Assembly: GCA_030167145.1 (NCBI GenBank)
Contig: CP126532.1
Coordinates: forward strand, 256,504-320,503
Source of the DNA: Ktedonobacterales bacterium
Lineage (GTDB): Bacteria; Chloroflexota; Ktedonobacteria; Ktedonobacterales; JADMIN01
Direction: 5' to 3'
Length of the DNA: 64,000 nt
Below are positions 6,637 to 25,920 of this stretch, piece after piece. A program made the position numbers and the translations under genes. Every line of letters starts with the position of its first letter. Position 1 is the first letter of the stretch. The notes below the pieces were generated by a model, which saw only the letters and a list, made by a program, of their open reading frames with translations, did no database searches and was not told the origin of the DNA.

Positions 6637-7755
6637 ATGGAACAAAACCTGCGTATTCCCGGCCCAACCCCGATTCCGCCAGAAGTCTTGCATGCGCTCA
6701 GCCGCCCGATGATCAACCATCGCGGACCAGAGTTCGCCGCCATCTTGGAGCGCGTCGAGACACAGCTACAGCACTTCTTCCAGACCACACACCCAATCCT
6801 CTTTTTCCCCTCAGCGGGTAGCGGAGCAATGGAAGCCGCCATCGTCAATTGCTTCTCCCCCGGCGACCACGTACTCGCCGTCACTATCGGCGTATTCGGC
6901 AATCGCTTCGCAAAGATCGCCGAAACGTTCGGCCTGCGCGTCACACGCCTGGAAACTCCCTGGGGCCACGCGGCAGACCTCGATCAACTCACTGTCGCTC
7001 TCGCGGACCAACGTGATCTCCGTGGCGTGCTACTCACTCACAACGAAACCTCCACTGGCGTCACCAACGACATCGCCGCGCTTGCCCGCATCATTCGCCA
7101 ACGCCAGCCTGATGCGTTGATCCTCGTAGACGCGGTTAGCTCGCTCGGATGTGTTGACCTTCAAATGGACGCATGGGATCTCGATGTCGTCTTCACTGGC
7201 TCGCAAAAAGGTTGGATGGTGCCACCAGGGCTGGCGATGGTCGCAGTTAGCCCCCGCGCCTGGGCGGCTGCGGACCGCGCAACTTTGCCACGCTTCTACT
7301 GGGACTTCCGCATGGCAAAGAAATCGCTTGACAAGGGACAAACCCCCTACACGCCGCCGGTCAACATCTTCTTTGGGCTTGATGTCTCGCTTGAAATGAT
7401 GCGCACCGAGGGCCGCGACGCCATCTTCGCCCGCCACCAGCGCGTCGCCGACCTCACCCGCACCCGCGCCCGCGCCCTCGGCCTCGCCCTCTTCGCCGAC
7501 CCCGCATATGCCTCCAATACCGTCACGGCGATCATCGTCCCAGACGGCATTGATGGCAAAGCACTGACAAAGGCTTTGCGCGAACAGGAGAGAGTAGTCA
7601 TCGCGGGCGGCCAGGAGCGGTTAGAAGGCAAGCTGCTCCGTATCGGTCATCTCGGCTACGTCCACGATACTGACATCAGCGCATGTATGGACGCCCTCGA
7701 ACGCCAGCTCGCCGCCCTTGGCTACCGAGCACAAGAACCCGCCTACGAGCAGTGA
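6637..7755 (+). CDS. class-V PLP aminotransferase (serine-glyoxylate / phosphoserine aminotransferase-like)
   Basis: The track ORF is 6595..7755, with the start placed at MEQNLRIPGPTP. GPTPIPPEVL and FTGSQKGWMVPPGLA (PLP-lysine context SQK) are typical of AGXT-type aminotransferases. It lies immediately upstream of serA. Confidence 0.8.
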   Translation: MEQNLRIPGPTPIPPEVLHALSRPMINHRGPEFAAILERVETQLQHFFQTTHPILFFPSAGSGAMEAAIVNCFSPGDHVLAVTIGVFGNRFAKIAETFGLRVTRLETPWGHAADLDQLTVALADQRDLRGVLLTHNETSTGVTNDIAALARIIRQRQPDALILVDAVSSLGCVDLQMDAWDLDVVFTGSQKGWMVPPGLAMVAVSPRAWAAADRATLPRFYWDFRMAKKSLDKGQTPYTPPVNIFFGLDVSLEMMRTEGRDAIFARHQRVADLTRTRARALGLALFADPAYASNTVTAIIVPDGIDGKALTKALREQERVVIAGGQERLEGKLLRIGHLGYVHDTDISACMDALERQLAALGYRAQEPAYEQ

Positions 7756-7873
7756 TGATGAGCACGGAGGAGCAGCATCCGAAATCGCCGCAGCTTCTCC
7801 CTGGTGCCGTAGCGCGCTTTAATATGTCATACTAAGATAGAGAACACTTCTACAAATGTGCAGGGAGGAACTG

Positions 7874-9556
7874 GTGGCGCAACAGCAGGACGGCGATATC
7901 ACCAAGTTACAACAACCGCGTGTGTTGGTGGCGGACCCCATCGCGGCGGAGGGTATAGCATTCCTGCGCGGAGTGGCACATGTAGAGGAGCGGCACGGCC
8001 TGGGTCAGGCGGAACTTATCGCGAGCATCGGTAATTTTGATGCCCTGCTGGTGCGCAGCGAGACGCGCGTCACCGCCGACGTTATCAGGGCCGGAACGCG
8101 GCTGCGTATCATCGCCCGCGCGGGCGTTGGCACCGACAACATTGACCTTGACGAGGCAACCCGGCAGGGCGTCATCGTGGTCAATTCGCCCACCGGAAAC
8201 ACTACCGCCGCCGCCGAGCATACCCTGGCGCTGCTTCTGGCACTGGCTCGCCACATCCCAGAGGCCAATGCTGCTCTGCGCGACGGCCGCTGGGAGCGCG
8301 CAGCCTTTGTCGGCACCGAATTGCGCGGGAAGACGCTCGGCATTGTCGGGTTGGGCAAAATCGGTGCTGAAGTCGCGCGCCGCGCTGGCGAAGGTGGTCT
8401 CGGCATGCGCTTGCTCGCCGCTGATCCCTACGCCTCGCCGGAGACCGCACGCAAGCTGCAAGTAGAACTCGTTTCACTTGACGAGATGCTTCCCCAGGCT
8501 GATTTCGTGACACTACACACCGCATTGACCAACGCCACGCGCGGGCTGCTAGGTCCGGCGGAACTGGAGCTTATGAAACCGGGCGCACGCATCCTCAACT
8601 GTGCGCGTGGCGGAGTAATTGATGAGCCTGCCCTGCTAGAAGCCCTCAATTCTGGGCATATCGGTGGCGCTGCCCTCGATGTCTTCGCCAAAGAGCCGCC
8701 CGCTCTCAACACGCCATCTGGTGCACTCGTGGCACACGCGAAGGTGATCGCCACCCCACATCTTGGCGCCTCGACCGAGGAAGCTCAGGTAAATGTCGCG
8801 CTGGAGGTGGCCGAGCAGGTGGCTGAAGTGCTGCGTGGCGGCACCGCGCGTGCGGCGGTCAACGCGCCGCTCATTCTACCGGAAACCCTGCGCGAGCTTC
8901 AACCCTGGATGGATCTGGTGGAGAAGCTAGGGCGGCTCTATACACAACTCCATCCCGGTCCTCTACATCGCGCCGAGCTAACCGTCAGCGGTGAGATCGC
9001 TGGACTGGACACCCGCCCGCTCAGCGCCGCGCTTGTCAAAGGGTTACTGGAATCCGTCTCCGAAGCGCAAGTAAATTTGGTGAACGCGCAAGTGTTGGCG
9101 CGCGACTGGGGCCTGGAGATCACCGAGAGCCGATCAACCGAGCCAGAGCAATATGCCAATCTGGTGACAGTACGGGTAAGCGGCGATGGCGGCGGAGTGC
9201 TGCCCTTTATGCTGGCGGCGACCATCGCCTGGGGTGAAGAGCGCATCGTACGGGTAGATCAATATGCAACCGACTTCGTACCCAAAGGCCACATCCTCAT
9301 CTGCCGCAACCTCGACCGCCCCGGCATGATTGGGCGCATCGGCACCATCCTGGGCGACGCTGGCGTCAACATCGGCCACATGGATGTCGGCCCCATCGCC
9401 AGTGTCCCACCTGATACCACCGTAAACCATGGCCAGCGCACACCAGGCGGCGAAGCACTGATGATCCTCTCACTCGATAACCCCGTCCCCGACCGCGCCA
9501 TTGAGCAGATTCGCAACACCCAGGACATCTTCAGCTTCACCAGTGTCACGCTGTAG
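7874..9556 (+). CDS. serA: D-3-phosphoglycerate dehydrogenase, long form with C-terminal ACT domain
   Basis: The track ORF is 7856..9556. An in-frame GTG at 7874 follows GGGAGGA, but ATG 7856 is also possible. Motifs are GVGTDNIDLDEATRQGVIVVNSP and the NAD motif GIVGLGKIGAEVARRA. The C-terminal segment ICRNLDRPGMIGRIGTILGDAGVNI is ACT-like. Confidence 0.85.
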   Translation: MAQQQDGDITKLQQPRVLVADPIAAEGIAFLRGVAHVEERHGLGQAELIASIGNFDALLVRSETRVTADVIRAGTRLRIIARAGVGTDNIDLDEATRQGVIVVNSPTGNTTAAAEHTLALLLALARHIPEANAALRDGRWERAAFVGTELRGKTLGIVGLGKIGAEVARRAGEGGLGMRLLAADPYASPETARKLQVELVSLDEMLPQADFVTLHTALTNATRGLLGPAELELMKPGARILNCARGGVIDEPALLEALNSGHIGGAALDVFAKEPPALNTPSGALVAHAKVIATPHLGASTEEAQVNVALEVAEQVAEVLRGGTARAAVNAPLILPETLRELQPWMDLVEKLGRLYTQLHPGPLHRAELTVSGEIAGLDTRPLSAALVKGLLESVSEAQVNLVNAQVLARDWGLEITESRSTEPEQYANLVTVRVSGDGGGVLPFMLAATIAWGEERIVRVDQYATDFVPKGHILICRNLDRPGMIGRIGTILGDAGVNIGHMDVGPIASVPPDTTVNHGQRTPGGEALMILSLDNPVPDRAIEQIRNTQDIFSFTSVTL

Positions 9557-9669: not shown

Positions 9670-10863
9670 CTACAACGTCAGCTCTGGTGGCGCAAAGATC
9701 GCCCGCACAAGCCGGTCAGCGTCATGGCGCACCAGATGTCCCTGATGCACCGCCAGTAGCGCATCTACGATCACATCCGGCACGAGTTGGCTCACTGCCT
9801 CCACATCAGGCTCGACGGGATATTGCTGCTGCGCCTCGTAGCGTTCTACCAACTCTTCCGGGAGCGAGCCATCATGCAGAATCACCCGGTCCACTCTCCC
9901 GCCAAGGTAGGTGTGCAGTTCGCGCACAAAGTCGGACGCGCGGAAAGCGTCTGTCTCGCCATGCTTGGTCATCAGATTGCAGATGTACACCTTACGCGCT
10001 TCAGATCCGCGAATAGCCTCCGCGATGTCACGCACCAGCAAATTCGGCAGGATGCTCGTATACAGATCTCCCGGCCCAAGCACGATCACATCGGCCCGGC
10101 GGATCGCGCGCAACGCCTCGGCGCAGGCTGGCGTCTCCTCACGCAGGAAGATACGTTGGATCGGCGACAGTGACCCGGCGTCGTGCAAGCCCCGTGTATC
10201 AATCTCTGTCTCACCGCAGATGACACCGCCGCCGGCCAGTTCGGCGCAGAGTGTCGCATGCTCCAGTGTGACAGGCAGCACCTTGCCAGCGGTATCCAGC
10301 ACTTCCTGCGCATCTTCAATTGCCAGCAAGAGGTTCCCATCGTTCAGTTCTTGCAGCGCCGAGAGGATCAGATTGCCCAGACTATGCCCCGCCACACCGG
10401 CTTCACGCCCCAACATCTGCGCCTTCGAGTCGTTCGGGTCACCAGCGATCAATGCATCGGGGCGCGTCCCCTGCCCCTGGCGAAAGCGAAAGCCGAAGAT
10501 TTCGCGCCAGAGCACCCCTTTGCGCGAGAGCGCCACCAGCGCCTGCCTCAGGTCACCATACGGCAGCGTGCCGAACTCATCCATCAGCCTCCGCGAACTG
10601 CCGCCGCTATCAGACATCGTCACAATCGCGGTGATCGCACATGGATAGCGCTTCAGGCTGGATAGTACCGCGAACGGACCTGTACCGCCGCCAATCGTCA
10701 CCACTCGCTTCTCGACCATCTGCCGCAATGTCTGGCGCTCCCGCTCAGGGTCACGCCCCTCAAGTGTCCGCGCCACAATGCTTGCTCTTTCTCTTGCCCA
10801 TCGCTCGCTAACCACACCGCTTCCACACTCCATCAGCATGAATGCTGCCATGATCGGGTGCAA
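9670..10863 (-). CDS. yvcK: YvcK/CofD-like gluconeogenesis factor family protein (UPF0052)
   Basis: VVTIGGGTGPFAVLSSLKRY...ITAIVTMSDSGGSSRRL is the hallmark N-terminal motif of YvcK. The exact start is uncertain. Confidence 0.8.
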   Translation of the reverse strand: MHPIMAAFMLMECGSGVVSERWARERASIVARTLEGRDPERERQTLRQMVEKRVVTIGGGTGPFAVLSSLKRYPCAITAIVTMSDSGGSSRRLMDEFGTLPYGDLRQALVALSRKGVLWREIFGFRFRQGQGTRPDALIAGDPNDSKAQMLGREAGVAGHSLGNLILSALQELNDGNLLLAIEDAQEVLDTAGKVLPVTLEHATLCAELAGGGVICGETEIDTRGLHDAGSLSPIQRIFLREETPACAEALRAIRRADVIVLGPGDLYTSILPNLLVRDIAEAIRGSEARKVYICNLMTKHGETDAFRASDFVRELHTYLGGRVDRVILHDGSLPEELVERYEAQQQYPVEPDVEAVSQLVPDVIVDALLAVHQGHLVRHDADRLVRAIFAPPELTL

Positions 10864-10976
10864 AGCTCCAATGCGAAGTGTTCGGCCCGCCTATCACTGC
10901 TGAGCACGGCCGGATTGCTTCAAGGGTGTGCCATGCCGTGGATCCCCAGCTTACGTACATGCCCGTCACCTATGCA

Positions 10977-11002
10977 AACAGCAGTAGAGCCTCGCTCCGT
11001 CT
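10977..11002 (+). promoter_or_regulatory. candidate ECF-type (autoregulated) promoter
   Basis: AAC (10977-10979), an 18-nt spacer, then CGTCT (10998-11002), about 55 nt upstream of the ECF sigma start. This resembles the AAC-N16/17-CGT ECF consensus, but the spacer is 1 nt long. Confidence 0.3.
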
Positions 11003-11055
11003 GAAAGATACAGAAGAGCAACAGCGGGGCCGCATCCCGCGAGAGAGGTGGAGCG

Positions 11056-11676
11056 ATGGAGCGGAACGGGAACGTGAACACTGGCGCTTCCTGGGGAGGC
11101 GGTGCGACAGCCTCGCAGCATGCTGAGCCAGCGGATTATGCGCAGTTTGTCGCGTTAGTGCCAATGCACATGGGTGCGGTATTGCGAGTCGCGGCGGCGC
11201 TGATTGGCCCGGCTGACGCCGAAGATGCCGCGCAGGAAGCCATGTTGCGCGGCTGGCAAGCATGGCCAGCAATGCGCAATCCCGCGGCGGCACGCGGCTG
11301 GCTGCTGCGCATCGCGGTCAATGTTTGCAAAGACTGGCAGCGAGGGCGTTATGGCACCCATAAACGGCTCGACCTACCCTTGCGCGACGATGCAAGCAAC
11401 ATCGAACCCGCACTTCTGGACGCCGACCCCGGCGCCAGTGACGCTGCCGCCTCTATGGACCTGCGCGCCGCCATCAACGAGTTGCATCCAGAGTTGCGTA
11501 TGGTCGTCTTGCTCCGCCACTACGTGGGCATGGACTCGAACGAGATAGGTGCGGCGCTTGGTATCCCGCCTGGTACCGTCCGCACGCGACTGCGTCGTGC
11601 GCTTGCGCTGCTCCGCGAGCGGCTCAGCCGGTCGGGCCACTGGCCATCGGCCTACACCCAGGAAGGCGGCAGGTAA
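11056..11676 (+). CDS. ECF-subfamily RNA polymerase sigma-70 factor
   Basis: 206 aa. Region 2 is AEDAAQEAMLRGW...RGWLLRIAVNVCKDW. Region 4 is LHPELRMVVLLRHYVGMDSNEIGAALGIPPGTVRTRLRRA. Confidence 0.8.
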   Translation: MERNGNVNTGASWGGGATASQHAEPADYAQFVALVPMHMGAVLRVAAALIGPADAEDAAQEAMLRGWQAWPAMRNPAAARGWLLRIAVNVCKDWQRGRYGTHKRLDLPLRDDASNIEPALLDADPGASDAAASMDLRAAINELHPELRMVVLLRHYVGMDSNEIGAALGIPPGTVRTRLRRALALLRERLSRSGHWPSAYTQEGGR

Positions 11677-18578: not shown

Positions 18579-19514
18579 TTGATGAGTGGACAGACTATTC
18601 ATTTTCGAGCTACGAAAGGACAAAGCTCAATGGATGTACGCTTCGACCTCTCACGCTTCGAGCCAGTGAATGGACAGAAACCTTTCCGTGTGCTGGATCG
18701 CCACCGTAGTGGCCGCGCAATTGCACTGCAATATGGTGGTGGGTCGGACAACGCCGCAGGTATCTGGGATTACGAGGCGGGCAAATTGCTTGGAGCAGGC
18801 GAAACAGCACTACCCATCTATACGTCCGGTAGCACTGTGCCCGCGCTCTGCTGGTCGGCTGATGGCAGGCAGGTCATCCTGTTGCGCGATCAGTATCATT
18901 ATCAACCGGAATTGCATCACATCATTGGATCGCCACTCCAGAGCGAATACACCCATTATTTGGAACGTTGGAGTTGGCCAGATTTAGAGCAGGTTGCCGT
19001 ATGTACAATTCAGCCACCAACGGGTTGGATGGAAACCATTGCCGTTTCACCTGACGGCGACCTTGCGGCCTTCACGTGGTGTGACCAGGATGGCACGGGC
19101 TTCGAGCTTGTGCGCCTCAGCTCTGATGGAGACGAACAGTTGCCAGCGGCGACATGCCAGCGCCAATACGAGTTGATCTATGAATTGGCGTTCAGCCCTG
19201 ATGGGCGCTATCTCGTGCTGACTGGTACCGGTTGGGAGATTCAATGGTGGACTGATGGTGGGGATCGCCTGGGGATGCCGTCAGAAGGCGGGCGACGTGA
19301 GGCTGGTTTCGTCGCCGTCTTCGATCTGGGGAAACGCACCTTGAAAGAACAGCGAATTGTCATAGATGTTCCGGCCGGCTGGCTCCCTTCTAACGAGAAC
19401 GCAACTGCGTTCTATACTCCTGGCCAGCCTCGATTTATCAACAGTGCAGAATTTGCTGTGCCACTGCAAACGGGGGAGGAACGGCTCTTCAGCATTGGAT
19501 TGTATCCTGCGTGA
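18579..19514 (+). CDS. hypothetical beta-propeller-like protein (repeated SPDG / WD40-like blades)
   Basis: 311-aa ORF. Recurrent blade-like motifs are CWSADGRQVILL, AVSPDGDLAAFTW and AFSPDGRYLVLTG. The real start is possibly MDVRFDL. The region looks AT-richer than its surroundings by eye. Confidence 0.5.
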   Translation: MMSGQTIHFRATKGQSSMDVRFDLSRFEPVNGQKPFRVLDRHRSGRAIALQYGGGSDNAAGIWDYEAGKLLGAGETALPIYTSGSTVPALCWSADGRQVILLRDQYHYQPELHHIIGSPLQSEYTHYLERWSWPDLEQVAVCTIQPPTGWMETIAVSPDGDLAAFTWCDQDGTGFELVRLSSDGDEQLPAATCQRQYELIYELAFSPDGRYLVLTGTGWEIQWWTDGGDRLGMPSEGGRREAGFVAVFDLGKRTLKEQRIVIDVPAGWLPSNENATAFYTPGQPRFINSAEFAVPLQTGEERLFSIGLYPA

Positions 19515-22536: not shown

Positions 22537-22773
22537 TCAGCGGCGACGCAACAAGATGAGCAGCAGATTGACGGCCACGGTGAGAACGAGGCTCAGGACG
22601 ATGCAGGTGACGATGGGGATGAAGATCGAGGTGTTGCCACGGCGGATGAGGATGTCGCCGGGGAGCCGCCCCAGGAACGGGATACGGCTGGCGACGAGGA
22701 AGAGCAGCCCCAGGGCAATGATGATGCCGCCGAAGGTCAACAGCATCTTGCCGAGATCGCTCAGTTCGGGCAT
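22537..22773 (-). CDS. DUF2905-family small membrane protein
   Basis: LGRLPGDILIRRGNTSIFIPIVTCIVLSLVLTVAVNLLL is the DUF2905 signature. The start was placed at MPELSDLG (22773) to avoid overlapping the HerA-like gene. Confidence 0.65.
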   Translation of the reverse strand: MPELSDLGKMLLTFGGIIIALGLLFLVASRIPFLGRLPGDILIRRGNTSIFIPIVTCIVLSLVLTVAVNLLLILLRRR

Positions 22774-22786
22774 GCTGGGTACTCCT

Positions 22787-24529
22787 TTACGTCTTGAAGA
22801 TTGAGAATCCGTCATTGTTGCGGGCGAGGATGGAGGTGTCGCGCTCGCGGGCTTCCGCCGCGTCTTCGCCGAAGTAGCGCTGCCACTCGTCCGGGGCGTC
22901 TTTGCTCTCGCCGCCGTGGGGCGTGATGCGCGTGCGGACGCGGCAGATGACGGGAGTATTGACGGCGCTGCCCGCGATGATGGCCTGGCCCTTGGAGAGC
23001 GAGGGCAGGTTGCCGAGCAGGTCGCGGCCTACCCCTTCTACCGCCGTCGCCACGCTCTTCTGGTCCACCTCGTTGACGATTCGCATGATGCACTGCGTCA
23101 GGCACTGGCTGAGCACGTCGGGGTCAAGCTTGCCAGGACGCTGGCTGATGAGGCCCATGCCGATGCCGAACTTGCGTCCCTCTGCAAGCACTTGCTTGAG
23201 AATATTGGTGGTGACGACCTCGCCACCGTGGGGGGCGAAGTGGTGGGCTTCTTCGAGCAAGACGAAAACGGGATAGGGCAGGTATTTTTCGTCGCCCTCA
23301 TGCACCTTGCCCTTTTCGGTGTCCAGCCGGGCGTTGTAGAGACGCCGCAGCAGAGTGGCGACGATAACTTGCTGGTCGCGCTCGTCAATTTCGTTGAGTT
23401 GCAGGACGGTACACTGGCCGGGCTGGAAGATTTCGCGTAGGTCGAGATGCTGGAAGGGATCGAAGACGAAGTTGTTCTCGCCGAGGCGCTCGTCAATCTT
23501 CCAACTGAGGGCGGCTTTGGTGCTGTTGCCGCTATCGTCGCCGCTCTGTTCGTTCTGTTCGTCCCCGACTTTGATGACGGCGTTCTTAAGGTCGGCGGCG
23601 GTCCAGGGTTGGCCTTTCTTGGCCTTCATCACGGCGTCATAGGCGCGGCCCAGGAAGTGATGCTGTTTTTCGGTGAGGCCGGGAAGCAGGTAACGCAGAT
23701 CGCCGATGGTGAGCGTGTTGAGACGGACTTTCACCTGATCGTGAAGGAAGACCTTGGCTTGCGCGCGGTAGCGGCTGCGGCGGCGCGAGCCGTTGGCCTC
23801 TGGCCCAGCGAATACGTTATGGTTAGGCAGTTCCTGGAGCGTGCCGTACTCGCCGTGGGGGTCCACAATCAGCACGGCGGCGCGATTGTAGGGCTTCATC
23901 AGTTCTTCGAGGAAGACGCTGGCCAGGTAACTCTTGCCGGAGCCGGTGCTGGCGATGATGGCGAGGTGGGTGCTGACGACATCTTTCACGTCCAGCACGA
24001 CGGGCACGGCGCCCTCGGCGCGGGTGAGCAGCGAGCCAACGGTGGCGCTGCCAACTCCGCCGCTGCGTTTGCGCGAGAGGACAGAGGCGAGCAGGGCATC
24101 ATCGGCAAGGAAGATAGGCGTGCCGGAGCTAGGCGGAATCCACGGGTTGACGAAGGTGCCAAGGGGAGCGTCATAGTAGCCGAGGATGGCGACATGCAAC
24201 TCGAAGAGATCGCTGGCACGGGAGTCGTAGCCGACGAGTTCGGCGACCTGGGCGGGCGGTACCTCTGGCTCGGAGAGGAAAGTGTCGGGATAGAGCTGCA
24301 CGGGCACGCGGTTGAGGATACGCCCCAGGACGCGGCGTGGCGTGGCGGGTGAAGATTTTGCGCCGTTGCCGCTGGGCGCATGGCCGTCTGCTGATTCTAG
24401 CTCGTAGTAGACGTACTCGCCATTTTTCAGCAGGCGCAGCTCATCGCGGGAGATGAAGGTGTATTCGTGGATGGTCTCGCCCGGCCCTTTGGTGATGCCG
24501 ACTGGCTTTTGGATACGTTCTTCTCGCAT
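22787..24529 (-). CDS. HerA-like (DUF87/COG0433) P-loop ATPase
   Basis: 580 aa. The N-terminal region is barrel-like. Walker A is IIASTGSGKSYLAS, followed by AAVLIVDPHGEY. Walker B is VFVLLEEAHHFAP. The C-terminal GLISQRPGKLDPDVLSQC is typical of HerA/FtsK-type hexameric ATPases. Confidence 0.8.
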   Translation of the reverse strand: MREERIQKPVGITKGPGETIHEYTFISRDELRLLKNGEYVYYELESADGHAPSGNGAKSSPATPRRVLGRILNRVPVQLYPDTFLSEPEVPPAQVAELVGYDSRASDLFELHVAILGYYDAPLGTFVNPWIPPSSGTPIFLADDALLASVLSRKRSGGVGSATVGSLLTRAEGAVPVVLDVKDVVSTHLAIIASTGSGKSYLASVFLEELMKPYNRAAVLIVDPHGEYGTLQELPNHNVFAGPEANGSRRRSRYRAQAKVFLHDQVKVRLNTLTIGDLRYLLPGLTEKQHHFLGRAYDAVMKAKKGQPWTAADLKNAVIKVGDEQNEQSGDDSGNSTKAALSWKIDERLGENNFVFDPFQHLDLREIFQPGQCTVLQLNEIDERDQQVIVATLLRRLYNARLDTEKGKVHEGDEKYLPYPVFVLLEEAHHFAPHGGEVVTTNILKQVLAEGRKFGIGMGLISQRPGKLDPDVLSQCLTQCIMRIVNEVDQKSVATAVEGVGRDLLGNLPSLSKGQAIIAGSAVNTPVICRVRTRITPHGGESKDAPDEWQRYFGEDAAEARERDTSILARNNDGFSIFKT

Positions 24530-24562
24530 GCTTGCCCCTCACACTTTTGGTTTCCAGCATGG

Positions 24563-25084
24563 CTACCTGTGGCACCAAACAGACACCGCCAGACATGATG
24601 GATATTGGCGAATCAACGAATAGGCCTTCTCTCTCAAATCATCCTTCTCTCTCAAATCTTGATTCTCATCTTCCGCTATGCTCCTTTTGTAGTCTTGCCA
24701 ATGCCAAATGCCATCGGCCGTAACGATTGCCGATGGGTCGAGGTCCATAGGAAGTTCTGGGACAGACCAGACATTTGTCTGCGAATCCAAGAAATCCCAA
24801 TCATCCCAATGCCCAACGGGGTTGGCGGTCATGATCCAGTATAGTCCGCCCTCATCTACTCCGCACTCGATGTGTCGCCGTACTTGTATCTGGCGACCTA
24901 TGTTCTCCAAGTCGCTGGTGGCTAACGACCATTGCCGGGCGAGATACTCAATGACAACTGCATCGAGATACTCTTTGTATGGTTCCACTTCGGTCATGAT
25001 GTCATATGGCTTCATGAGACGCTCGACCTCTGCCGTGATGTCTTCGGTGTCGCTGGAAACCAGCACTAGCGTCAGAAATTGCAT
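24563..25084 (-). CDS. hypothetical protein (173 aa), AT-richer insert in the HerA operon
   Basis: It is a clean ORF with an acidic protein-like sequence and a Trp-rich motif (ANPVGHWDDWDF...GIWHWQDY). An internal tandem duplication encodes DLREKDDLREK. I recognise no family. Confidence 0.5.
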   Translation of the reverse strand: MQFLTLVLVSSDTEDITAEVERLMKPYDIMTEVEPYKEYLDAVVIEYLARQWSLATSDLENIGRQIQVRRHIECGVDEGGLYWIMTANPVGHWDDWDFLDSQTNVWSVPELPMDLDPSAIVTADGIWHWQDYKRSIAEDENQDLREKDDLREKAYSLIRQYPSCLAVSVWCHR

Positions 25085-25185
25085 ATGATACTCACATTTT
25101 CTTCCGACAGCTATTAATCACAATACCCTCTCATGCGGCATTGCCTCCGGTATATCAAACATATAGGCACCGCGACAATGAAACA

Positions 25186-25920
25186 TCACCCTGCCGTCTG
25201 GACTTTGAGCTTCCAGGCGAAGTTGCGTTTGACGATGGAGAGCAGCGCGCGATTTTCGGGGAAGAGCCGTTCGAGCCGCTCAATGGTGCGCAGCATGGCC
25301 ATGGGCAGGAGCGGATTATCGAGAGCGATGGCGTGGGGCAGGTAGCCCATGTGCAGGTATGGGCGCACACCTCCGGGGGCGGCGTTGTCGGCAAAGTGGT
25401 GGAAGGCGCGCACGACTTCGTCGGGCAACGCGCAGACCTCAGCGCCAAGGTCGAGGGCGAGCGGCGGCACGCCATGCGCGACGTGCGGCGAACCGCCAGT
25501 GCGGGGCGTAAGCGTGCCGAGCAGCAGAATCGAGACGAGCACAGCGCGTTCGGAGATGTAGTCGGGGGCGAATAGCTCGTTCTGCTCGTCGTTGGAAAGC
25601 CGTGGGCCGAGGGAGCCAAAGGCGGGATTGACGAGAATAGTGTCGTAAATCAGTCCGATGGCCCAGCAGTCCTGGTGCGTTGTGTTGGCACGCCCGCGTG
25701 GCGCAGGCGGCGCAGGGAGGGTGTCGCTTGTGGGCGAGTCGAGCAGCGCGACATCGGCGCGGCCCGGCGAGATGCGCAACGGCATACGCACGAAACTGCC
25801 GAAGGCGTAGTCCGCTGGCTCTGGGGGAGCCGCGATCTCGCCCGCGCTGTAGACCTGGCACGTGTAGCGCACGTGCGATTCAGAGCGCACGATTTTGCCG
25901 ATAGCCACGCTCTCTGCCAT
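25186..25920 (-). CDS. hypothetical protein (244 aa), first gene of the HerA-like operon
   Basis: The track ORF is 25186..26223. Its Pro-rich N-terminal 101 aa overlap the amine oxidase gene, so I start at MAESVAIGKIVRSESHVRYTCQVY (ATG at 25920). The N-terminus resembles a small beta-barrel. I see no catalytic motif. Confidence 0.5.
   Translation of the reverse strand: MAESVAIGKIVRSESHVRYTCQVYSAGEIAAPPEPADYAFGSFVRMPLRISPGRADVALLDSPTSDTLPAPPAPRGRANTTHQDCWAIGLIYDTILVNPAFGSLGPRLSNDEQNELFAPDYISERAVLVSILLLGTLTPRTGGSPHVAHGVPPLALDLGAEVCALPDEVVRAFHHFADNAAPGGVRPYLHMGYLPHAIALDNPLLPMAMLRTIERLERLFPENRALLSIVKRNFAWKLKVQTAG

Follow-up and report, generated by a model that had tools for sequence, protein, structure and literature searches.

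The conserved unit at this locus is a two-gene pair, in which a gene of the unstudied Pfam family DUF8166 is followed by herA, and on balance we favour the reading that DUF8166 serves HerA, or HerA-NurA, as a free-standing accessory subunit of HAS-barrel type, and that the operon has been fragmented in Ktedonobacteria. Because its predicted fold matches only HerA chains and its gene lies before herA, or between nurA and herA, DUF8166 is probably an unrecognised subunit of a DNA-break-repair machine and not a new defence system. The HerA linkage, the HerA-like predicted fold and the five-gene cassette described below are new here and absent from the literature searched.

The window analysed is the whole 64-kb stretch of DNA, where positions 22,537–25,920 of the minus strand hold four co-oriented ORFs encoding a 244-aa protein, a 173-aa protein, a 580-aa HerA and a DUF2905 peptide, in the same-strand layout given by the preliminary description. 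The 244-aa ORF (25,186–25,920) has an ATG start and a GGGAGG Shine-Dalgarno sequence. An alternative reading of 345 aa runs into the upstream amine-oxidase gene, and the 244-aa start is favoured because homologues begin 1–4 residues ahead of the IGKIV motif. Six large flanking ORFs scanned against Pfam were metabolic wherever a family matched (one had no match), and a promoter and terminator scan of the locus returned nothing above chance.

The 244-aa protein had been described as unknown, but its family is listed: by precomputed annotation it is a full-length member of DUF8166 (PF26500), since an identical database protein carries the PF26500 label, as do all 240 homologues among the matches listed (47–100% identity) and the distant homologues. 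UniRef names these homologues “DUF8166 domain-containing protein”, others being called only “hypothetical protein”. Searches with the protein gave no match in NCBIfam, PADLOC, PHROGs or a copy of Pfam without the PF26500 model, and searches of PDB sequences, using the protein alone and the family profile, returned nothing meaningful. A literature search on PF26500 and DUF8166 found no mention of either, and the sources give the family no function. In the family alignment only G135, H174 and Y193 are invariant, no catalytic constellation is conserved, and the conserved motifs are the family’s own (NPxxGxxGPRLS, F-x-PDY and FH). Fragments of unrelated proteins are joined in two apparent fusions (P0194 and P0270), which most likely reflect chimeric contigs or gene calls and are uninformative.

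The AlphaFold (AF2) model of DUF8166 (pLDDT 88, pTM 0.84) predicts a beta-rich, HerA-like N-terminal part (residues 6–190), which includes a lineage-specific Pro-rich loop at about residues 50–85, followed by two long C-terminal helices (residues 205–243). A Foldseek search of the PDB, the check that had been proposed for this protein, returned HerA chains for all of the best 50 matches (best E = 1.8e-7), with modest query-normalised TM-scores of 0.33–0.39 and with the aligned HerA residues unreported by Foldseek. Apparently, then, the modelled fold is that of HerA’s own N-terminal HAS-barrel (HerA-ATP synthase barrel). By hhalign, residues 12–210 of DUF8166 run co-linear with HerA residues 2–180 in strand and motif pattern, in an alignment that is weak and not significant, and the DUF8166 profile showed no significant similarity to the cognate HerA, either full-length or N-terminal. 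Unlike the HAS-barrel of HerA, DUF8166 is free-standing, lacks an ATPase domain, and carries its own motifs and a predicted C-terminal helical hairpin.

The pairing of DUF8166 with herA extends far beyond this genome. On the same strand, herA directly follows DUF8166 at 97 of the 98 loci from Ktedonobacteria, with a median gap of 64 nt, and at 49 of the 53 distant ones, with a median gap of 24 nt; on three haloarchaeal plasmids the two genes overlap by 1–4 nt. These counts bear out the view of the 244-aa protein as conserved, uncharacterised and HerA-linked. Exceptions are a distant locus with nurA-DUF8166 and no herA within 6 kb (L008) and a Ktedonobacterales locus with DUF8166 and no herA (L005/L012). 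Since the flanks vary among Ktedonobacteria genomes while the pair is kept in 168 species representatives, its inheritance looks vertical and core-like. In a second lineage (L112-type loci), the pair stands alone between housekeeping flanks.

Distant relatives usually have the gene order mre11-rad50-nurA-DUF8166-herA, seen in an Anaerolineae MAG, unassigned metagenome contigs and haloarchaeal plasmids. Pfam or RefSeq labels give this five-gene order for the Anaerolineae MAG, for Halobellus and for plasmids of Natrinema, Halobaculum and DL31. The cassette Rad50 is an SMC/Rad50 protein with a zinc hook, Mre11 matches Metallophos and NurA matches PF09376. A nurA gene lies upstream of DUF8166 at 29 of 45 distant loci, and at 16 of the 21 whose upstream sequence spans 5 kb or more. 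NurA was found near DUF8166-herA at none of 95 Ktedonobacteria loci, and tblastn and HMMs built from cassette homologues detected no NurA, Mre11 or Rad50 across the 64-kb window. Two Ktedonobacteria loci (L020 and L065) carry Rad50 and Mre11 of the cassette type as isolated genes.

The HerA of this locus (22,787–24,529, minus strand) is the canonical DUF87 ATPase that had been reported, a hexameric DNA translocase of 580 aa matching PF01935 at 130.8 bits (gathering cut-off 23.2, E = 1e-37), with Walker A (GSGKS) at residue 196 and Walker B (LLEEAHHF) at residue 424. Its best NCBIfam matches are HerA models of double-strand-break repair, all below their cut-offs; the top-scoring one, NF040819, falls far short at 200 bits against 970. 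The closest PDB sequences are the HerAs of T. kodakarensis and Sulfolobus, both NurA-partnered, and the HerAs of Sir2 and DUF4297 anti-phage systems are further off (1e-27 to 1e-17). It is 50–56% identical to HerAs from the five-gene cassettes. Because distant relatives keep the mre11-rad50-nurA-DUF8166-herA order, this HerA is probably of the repair (NurA-partnered) type, with a fragmented operon in which only DUF8166 and herA are still linked. Its earlier designation as an orphan holds only locally, no NurA being found within the window: its orthologues sit in mre11-rad50-nurA-DUF8166-herA operons.

Known arrangements include the archaeal herA-mre11-rad50-nurA operons and the nurA-herA operon of Deinococcus. 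Our system resembles the HerA-NurA resection complex with Mre11-Rad50 both in the type of HerA and in that relatives carry Mre11, Rad50 and NurA in one operon with this HerA clade. It differs in that these relatives add a fifth conserved gene, DUF8166, between nurA and herA, and in that this locus has herA unlinked from nurA, mre11 and rad50. In Sir2-HerA (Nezha) and DUF4297-HerA, a HerA hexamer likewise has a small partner encoded next to it, and in the solved complexes this partner docks on the HerA N-terminal face. DUF8166, in contrast, has neither a Sir2 nor a DUF4297 domain and no PADLOC match, and it resembles the N-terminal domain of HerA rather than an effector enzyme. To our knowledge, all known HerA partners (NurA, Sir2 and DUF4297) use this N-terminal face.

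Structural work has treated HerA-NurA as a machine of two proteins, with six HerA and two NurA subunits, in which the HAS-barrel forms the ring where the NurA nuclease dimer docks. The HAS-barrel of HerA is the docking surface of NurA (PMC9960219). In the mechanism we propose, DUF8166 would be a non-enzymatic, paralogue-like copy of this barrel with a predicted C-terminal helical hairpin, and it would either bind the HerA hexamer at its N-terminal face or co-assemble with HerA. There, as an adaptor or gate, it would mediate between HerA and NurA during DNA-end resection. The five-gene operon would be the ancestral setting; in Ktedonobacteria, including this genome, it would have been broken up so that DUF8166 and herA alone stayed linked, with NurA, Mre11 and Rad50 presumably encoded elsewhere. 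More tentatively, and with a probability we put below even, DUF8166 could be an overlooked fifth core subunit in a Mre11-Rad50-NurA-HerA resection machine shared by bacteria and archaea, forming a free-standing HAS-barrel ring or cap stacked on the N-terminal face of HerA that controls NurA docking or DNA exit, within a cassette that is horizontally mobile between Chloroflexota and haloarchaeal plasmids and has been recruited there beside pAgo and Shango defence genes. If the accessory-subunit reading is true, a conserved HAS-barrel copy encoded on its own between nurA and herA, in bacteria and archaea alike, would imply that assembly or regulation involves an additional level. A Pfam DUF would then gain a context and a likely role, DUF8166 would be a concrete candidate to test as a subunit of HerA systems, and the “orphan” HerAs of Ktedonobacteria would be remnants of fragmented repair operons, not necessarily new defence systems.

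Among the alternatives, it is rather unlikely that DUF8166 and HerA are self-sufficient without NurA in Ktedonobacteria and other lone-pair lineages, with DUF8166 as a cap that regulates a DNA translocase, or recruits substrate to it, in another process, such as the handling of chromosome or plasmid DNA in these mycelial, spore-forming bacteria. The pair may act without NurA in Ktedonobacteria because NurA is adjacent at 0 of 95 loci and missing from the 64-kb window; DUF8166-herA is, moreover, the sole linkage to survive the break-up of the operon, and L112-type loci hold it alone among housekeeping genes. Orthologous pairs are nevertheless embedded with nurA in a resection operon in many lineages, and this HerA is nearest to NurA-partnered HerAs. 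Cassette-type rad50 and mre11 persist in Ktedonobacteria, and a dispersed nurA is therefore plausible as well. Far less probable, and indeed very improbable, is that the 244-aa protein is itself a NurA that has diverged strongly, or a nuclease effector of some other kind. Its gene holds the slot that nurA occupies directly upstream of herA in simple bacterial nurA-herA operons, but in many operons a genuine NurA (PF09376) is encoded immediately upstream of DUF8166 as a separate gene. The protein has no NurA match in Pfam, its model matches HerA chains instead of NurA or RNase-H-like nucleases, and the family has no conserved acidic catalytic set; a diverged NurA, which the preliminary description had named as a refuting outcome, is thus not what we find.

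A defence role is unlikely, more so than action without NurA. Here, the five-gene cassette, and by extension the pair, would serve or support anti-mobile-element defence, for example by degrading invading linear DNA or by feeding DNA fragments to pAgo. Haloarchaeal cassettes are carried on megaplasmids or a conjugative element, where either a pAgo (PADLOC, 4.5e-51) or Shango SngB/SngC (2.5e-170 and 1.5e-272) directly precedes them, and PADLOC HerA models match the HerA of this locus; the haloarchaeal plasmid copies may have such a role. For this genome, the suggested new defence module is not indicated: the flanks are metabolic, neither DUF8166 nor NurA is hit by any PADLOC model, the 173-aa and DUF2905 proteins are likewise without a PADLOC match, and no Sir2 or DUF4297 effector lies next to herA. 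The core-like retention of the pair in Ktedonobacteria, despite differing flanks, also argues against defence.

The idea of a previously undescribed HerA partner at this locus survives for the 244-aa protein, as a conserved HerA-linked protein, and falls for the 173-aa protein. The latter (24,563–25,084, minus strand) is acidic and Trp-rich as described (pI 4.4, 8 Trp) and is co-oriented between two conserved genes, ending 33 nt upstream of herA, an arrangement that would suit a new partner or effector. We give that reading almost no weight. The ORF lies in an insert between the DUF8166 gene and herA (24,530–25,185) whose GC content is 50%, compared with 61–67%, and where relatives have a spacer with a median of about 64 nt; its GC3 is 0.59, compared with 0.79 for its neighbours. 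Among 5.8 billion proteins it matched only itself, tblastn gave no match across about 170 related loci, and nothing was found in Pfam, NCBIfam, PADLOC, PHROGs or PDB sequences; a single-sequence AF2 model (pLDDT 38) was unusable. As the ORF has no homologue and the low-GC insert is missing from all relatives, it is not a conserved partner but foreign DNA that entered the spacer recently. A search around the insert revealed neither terminal nor target-site repeats, and in other genomes unrelated small inserts fill the same spacer.

The DUF2905 gene (22,537–22,815, minus strand), which had been included in the operon, had 0 matches in the approximately 170 related loci and is an incidental downstream neighbour outside the conserved module. 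It encodes a small membrane protein of 92 aa that passes the PF11146 gathering cut-off of 22.2 with 73.6 bits (E = 1.5e-20), and, when read from its first ATG, the ORF shares 29 nt with the end of herA.

Four same-orientation open reading frames (ORFs) span positions 22537-25920 on the minus strand of the window, encoding a 244-aa protein (25186-25920), a 173-aa protein (24563-25084), a 580-aa HerA (22787-24529; Pfam DUF87, E = 1e-37; Walker A GSGKS at residue 196, Walker B LLEEAHHF at residue 424), and a 92-aa DUF2905 protein (22537-22815; Pfam match 1.5e-20). ORF calls, Pfam matches, and motifs bear out the arrangement in the preliminary description, a HerA-like ATPase with two upstream ORFs and a DUF2905 gene on one strand. 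The 244-aa start is favored because it is preceded by a ribosome-binding site (GGGAGG) and agrees with the equivalent starts of homologues; an alternative 345-aa reading runs into the upstream amine-oxidase gene. Neither the 244-aa protein nor the 173-aa protein (8 Trp, pI 4.4) matched local Pfam, NCBIfam, PADLOC, PHROGs, or PDB sequences. Pfam-matched neighbors are metabolic (flavin monooxygenase, GH3 hydrolase, amine oxidase, Rieske oxygenase, and alpha/beta hydrolase), and one neighboring ORF has no Pfam match. A 311-aa ORF at 18579-19514 (+), with no Pfam match at E ≤ 1e-5, resembles a repeat/beta-propeller protein in sequence.

Searches of a 5.8-billion-protein collection found 1074 homologues of the 244-aa protein (E ≤ 1e-3), and all homologues among the matches listed carry the PF26500 (DUF8166) label. 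The protein, which originates from a Ktedonobacterales MAG, is, by these labels, a member of a listed but unstudied family: our literature search found no paper naming PF26500 or DUF8166. Among 1.84 billion cluster representatives, exhaustive scanning with HMMER recovered only 230 clusters. Members are typically ~195-200 aa long, and the window protein has an additional Pro-rich loop (~residues 50-85) modeled at low confidence. Conserved motifs include IGKIV-S-SH-Y, DYAFG-FV, VG-IYDT-L-NP--G--GPRLS, F-PDY, and FH; only G135, H174, and Y193 are invariant in the family alignment, and conservation reveals no acidic set of catalytic appearance.

Scanning GTDB species representatives turned up a relative in 168 genomes, and the best 80 of the 168 all belong to the class Ktedonobacteria, among them Ktedonobacter, Dictyobacter, Ktedonosporobacter, Ktedonospora, and Thermogemmatispora. 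A same-strand herA lies directly 3′ of DUF8166 in 97 of 98 assessable Ktedonobacteria-type loci from genomes and metagenomes (median gap 64 nt) and in 49 of 53 loci of distant members (27-41% identical; median gap 24 nt). The two genes are probably translationally coupled, and three haloarchaeal plasmids show an overlap of 1-4 nt between them. Flanking genes vary between genomes, so that only the DUF8166-herA pair is kept together. The earlier proposal is partly right: the 244-aa protein is a putative, previously undescribed partner of HerA, and the pairing is conserved outside the source genome. Only one Ktedonobacteria locus, L005/L012 (DASVAA010000228.1, a Ktedonobacterales MAG), departs from this order; in the place of herA it has an unrelated gene (7003-8859), encoding a 618-aa membrane protein that is alpha/beta-hydrolase-like by eye and has no recorded Pfam match.

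We modeled DUF8166 with AF2 from a 69-sequence alignment (pLDDT 88, pTM 0.84). The model is beta-rich over residues 6-190 and ends in two long C-terminal helices (205-243). The best 50 Foldseek matches in the PDB were all HerA chains, led by T. kodakarensis HerA-NurA (E = 1.8e-7) and including E. coli Sir2-HerA, DUF4297-HerA, Sulfolobus HerA, and Deinococcus HerA, with query-normalized TM-scores of 0.33-0.39 and ~10% identity. Sequence similarity to HerA is not significant, and a local profile alignment that runs co-linear with HerA residues 2-180 is suggestive only, given its P of 0.14 (aligned pairs FGSFVRMPL/NGEYVYYEL, IGLIY..DTILVNP/LGRIL..DTFLSEP, ILLLGT/VAILGY, and P..LGAEV/PPSSGTPI).

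Distant relatives place the pair in a larger operon. The distant homologue P0129 ends a run of Metallophos (Mre11/SbcD-like), SMC_N/AAA_23 (Rad50/SbcC-like), NurA (PF09376), and DUF8166 genes. A metagenome scan with the distant DUF8166 class returned 531 relatives, from which 80 loci were kept. NurA lies 5′ of DUF8166 in 29/45 assessable distant loci, adjoining it in 25; among the 21 distant loci whose upstream sequence reaches 5 kb or more, NurA is 5′ in 16, Rad50-like genes occur in 12, and Mre11-like genes in 9. The order mre11-rad50-nurA-DUF8166-herA, labeled by Pfam/RefSeq, was found in an Anaerolineae MAG, in Halobellus clavatus (where the Rad50-like protein has a zinc hook), and on plasmids of Natrinema zhouii, Halobaculum marinum, and halophilic archaeon DL31. 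The window HerA shares 50-56% identity with its counterparts in the bacterial cassettes and 39% with the one in Halobellus. Three features appear to be previously undescribed: the obligate linkage of DUF8166 to HerA, the five-gene cassette across Chloroflexota and haloarchaeal plasmids, and the predicted HerA-like fold of DUF8166. One locus (L008, 191-12603), on a 1.97-Mb contig (ENA ERZ25069191), carries mre11-rad50-nurA-DUF8166 but lacks a herA within 6 kb; its next co-oriented gene encodes a giant (>1680 aa) DEAD + UvrD double-helicase fusion, which may replace the HerA motor.

The solved HerAs closest in sequence to the window HerA are those of T. kodakarensis (3.6e-50) and Sulfolobus (1.4e-37), both NurA-partnered, ahead of the Sir2- and DUF4297-associated anti-phage HerAs. 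Judged by sequence, the window holds a repair-type HerA locus, with the same kind of HerA as HerA-NurA systems plus DUF8166 as an extra putative partner. We propose that DUF8166 would bind, or co-assemble with, the HerA hexamer at its N-terminal face and there adapt or gate NurA docking or DNA exit, which would make it an accessory subunit of a machine for DNA-end resection. Alternatively, DUF8166-HerA could be a machine independent of NurA in Ktedonobacteria, where NurA is 5′ of DUF8166 in 0/95 loci; HMMs made from cassette homologues likewise found no NurA, Mre11, or Rad50 in the 64-kb window. The five-gene operon appears to be fragmented in this class: an isolated cassette-type Rad50 (L020, 1138-4425 (-), 1095 aa) and Mre11 (L065, 1449-2762 (-), 437 aa) lie 3-5 kb from DUF8166-herA on the opposite strand among unrelated neighbors, and may be broken-operon remnants. 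In a second, non-Ktedonobacteria lineage (L112-type loci), the pair also stands alone among housekeeping genes. As the pair alone persists in both, DUF8166-herA is the minimal unit resisting separation, which argues that the tightest functional coupling would be between DUF8166 and HerA. In L112, a family 10 baeRF (bacterial archaeo-eukaryotic release-factor-like) gene (10282-11541) follows herA by 21 nt on the same strand.

Haloarchaeal gene contexts raise a further reading, in which the five-gene cassette has a defense or defense-supporting role: a pAgo gene (PADLOC 4.5e-51) precedes the Halobellus clavatus cassette by 25 nt on a conjugative element, and the Natrinema zhouii cassette lies directly downstream of Shango SngB/SngC, with a same-size trio in identical order in strain DL31. 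In the window itself, no PADLOC-matched partner gene and no Pfam-matched neighbor suggests defense. The earlier leaning toward a NurA-less new defense module is probably wrong. For structural work on HerA-NurA, DUF8166 is a concrete candidate subunit that can be tested.

In the Halobellus locus (L170, 397-10265; Logan SRR4164008), the pAgo gene is co-oriented with the cassette and its Pfam Piwi match is weak; archaeal conjugation genes (TrwB/TraG-like, TraC-like, and TrbL) lie just 3′, and the locus could be a pAgo + end-resection module on a mobile element. On the Natrinema plasmid (NZ_CP084885.1; locus L172, 1-12273), Shango (TerB-N protein; SngB, 2.5e-170; SngC, 1.5e-272) is directly 5′ of the cassette on the same strand, and another SbcCD-like pair ("DNA repair exonuclease" and "AAA family ATPase") lies ~5 kb downstream. 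The DL31 trio (plasmid CP002989.1; locus L174, 1-12318) corresponds to these Shango genes in size and order and is a putative Shango.

The 173-aa protein, also put forward as a candidate HerA partner, matches only itself among 5.8 billion proteins and had no tblastn match in ~170 related loci, and is ruled out as a conserved module member; so is DUF2905, described as the operon's tail, which has a homologue in none of the related loci. The 173-aa ORF lies within a 656-nt segment (24530-25185) with ~50% GC, against 61-67% on either side, and reversed GC skew; its GC3 is 0.59 vs. 0.79 in neighbors, and in the closest relatives (DUF8166 74-76% identical) herA begins 20-45 nt after DUF8166. With no homologues, low GC and GC3, and a short spacer in relatives, these compositional and comparative features mark the ORF as a lineage-specific foreign insert. 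Within the segment, positions 24625-24660 hold an 18-nt tandem duplication (DLREKD/DLREKA in the encoded protein). A search for terminal repeats around the segment found none, and a single-sequence AF2 model of the protein was unusable (pLDDT 38). In other genomes, too, the DUF8166-herA spacer has repeatedly taken in small, unrelated ORFs, whose family names we assigned by eye from their sequences: four-helix-bundle/23S-IVS-like (L116, 8690-9347), GxxExxY-like (L017, 8672-9205), GIY-YIG-like (L016, 3325-3865), and, in two distant loci, an EamA-like membrane protein (L099, 1259-2264; L102, 2204-3153).
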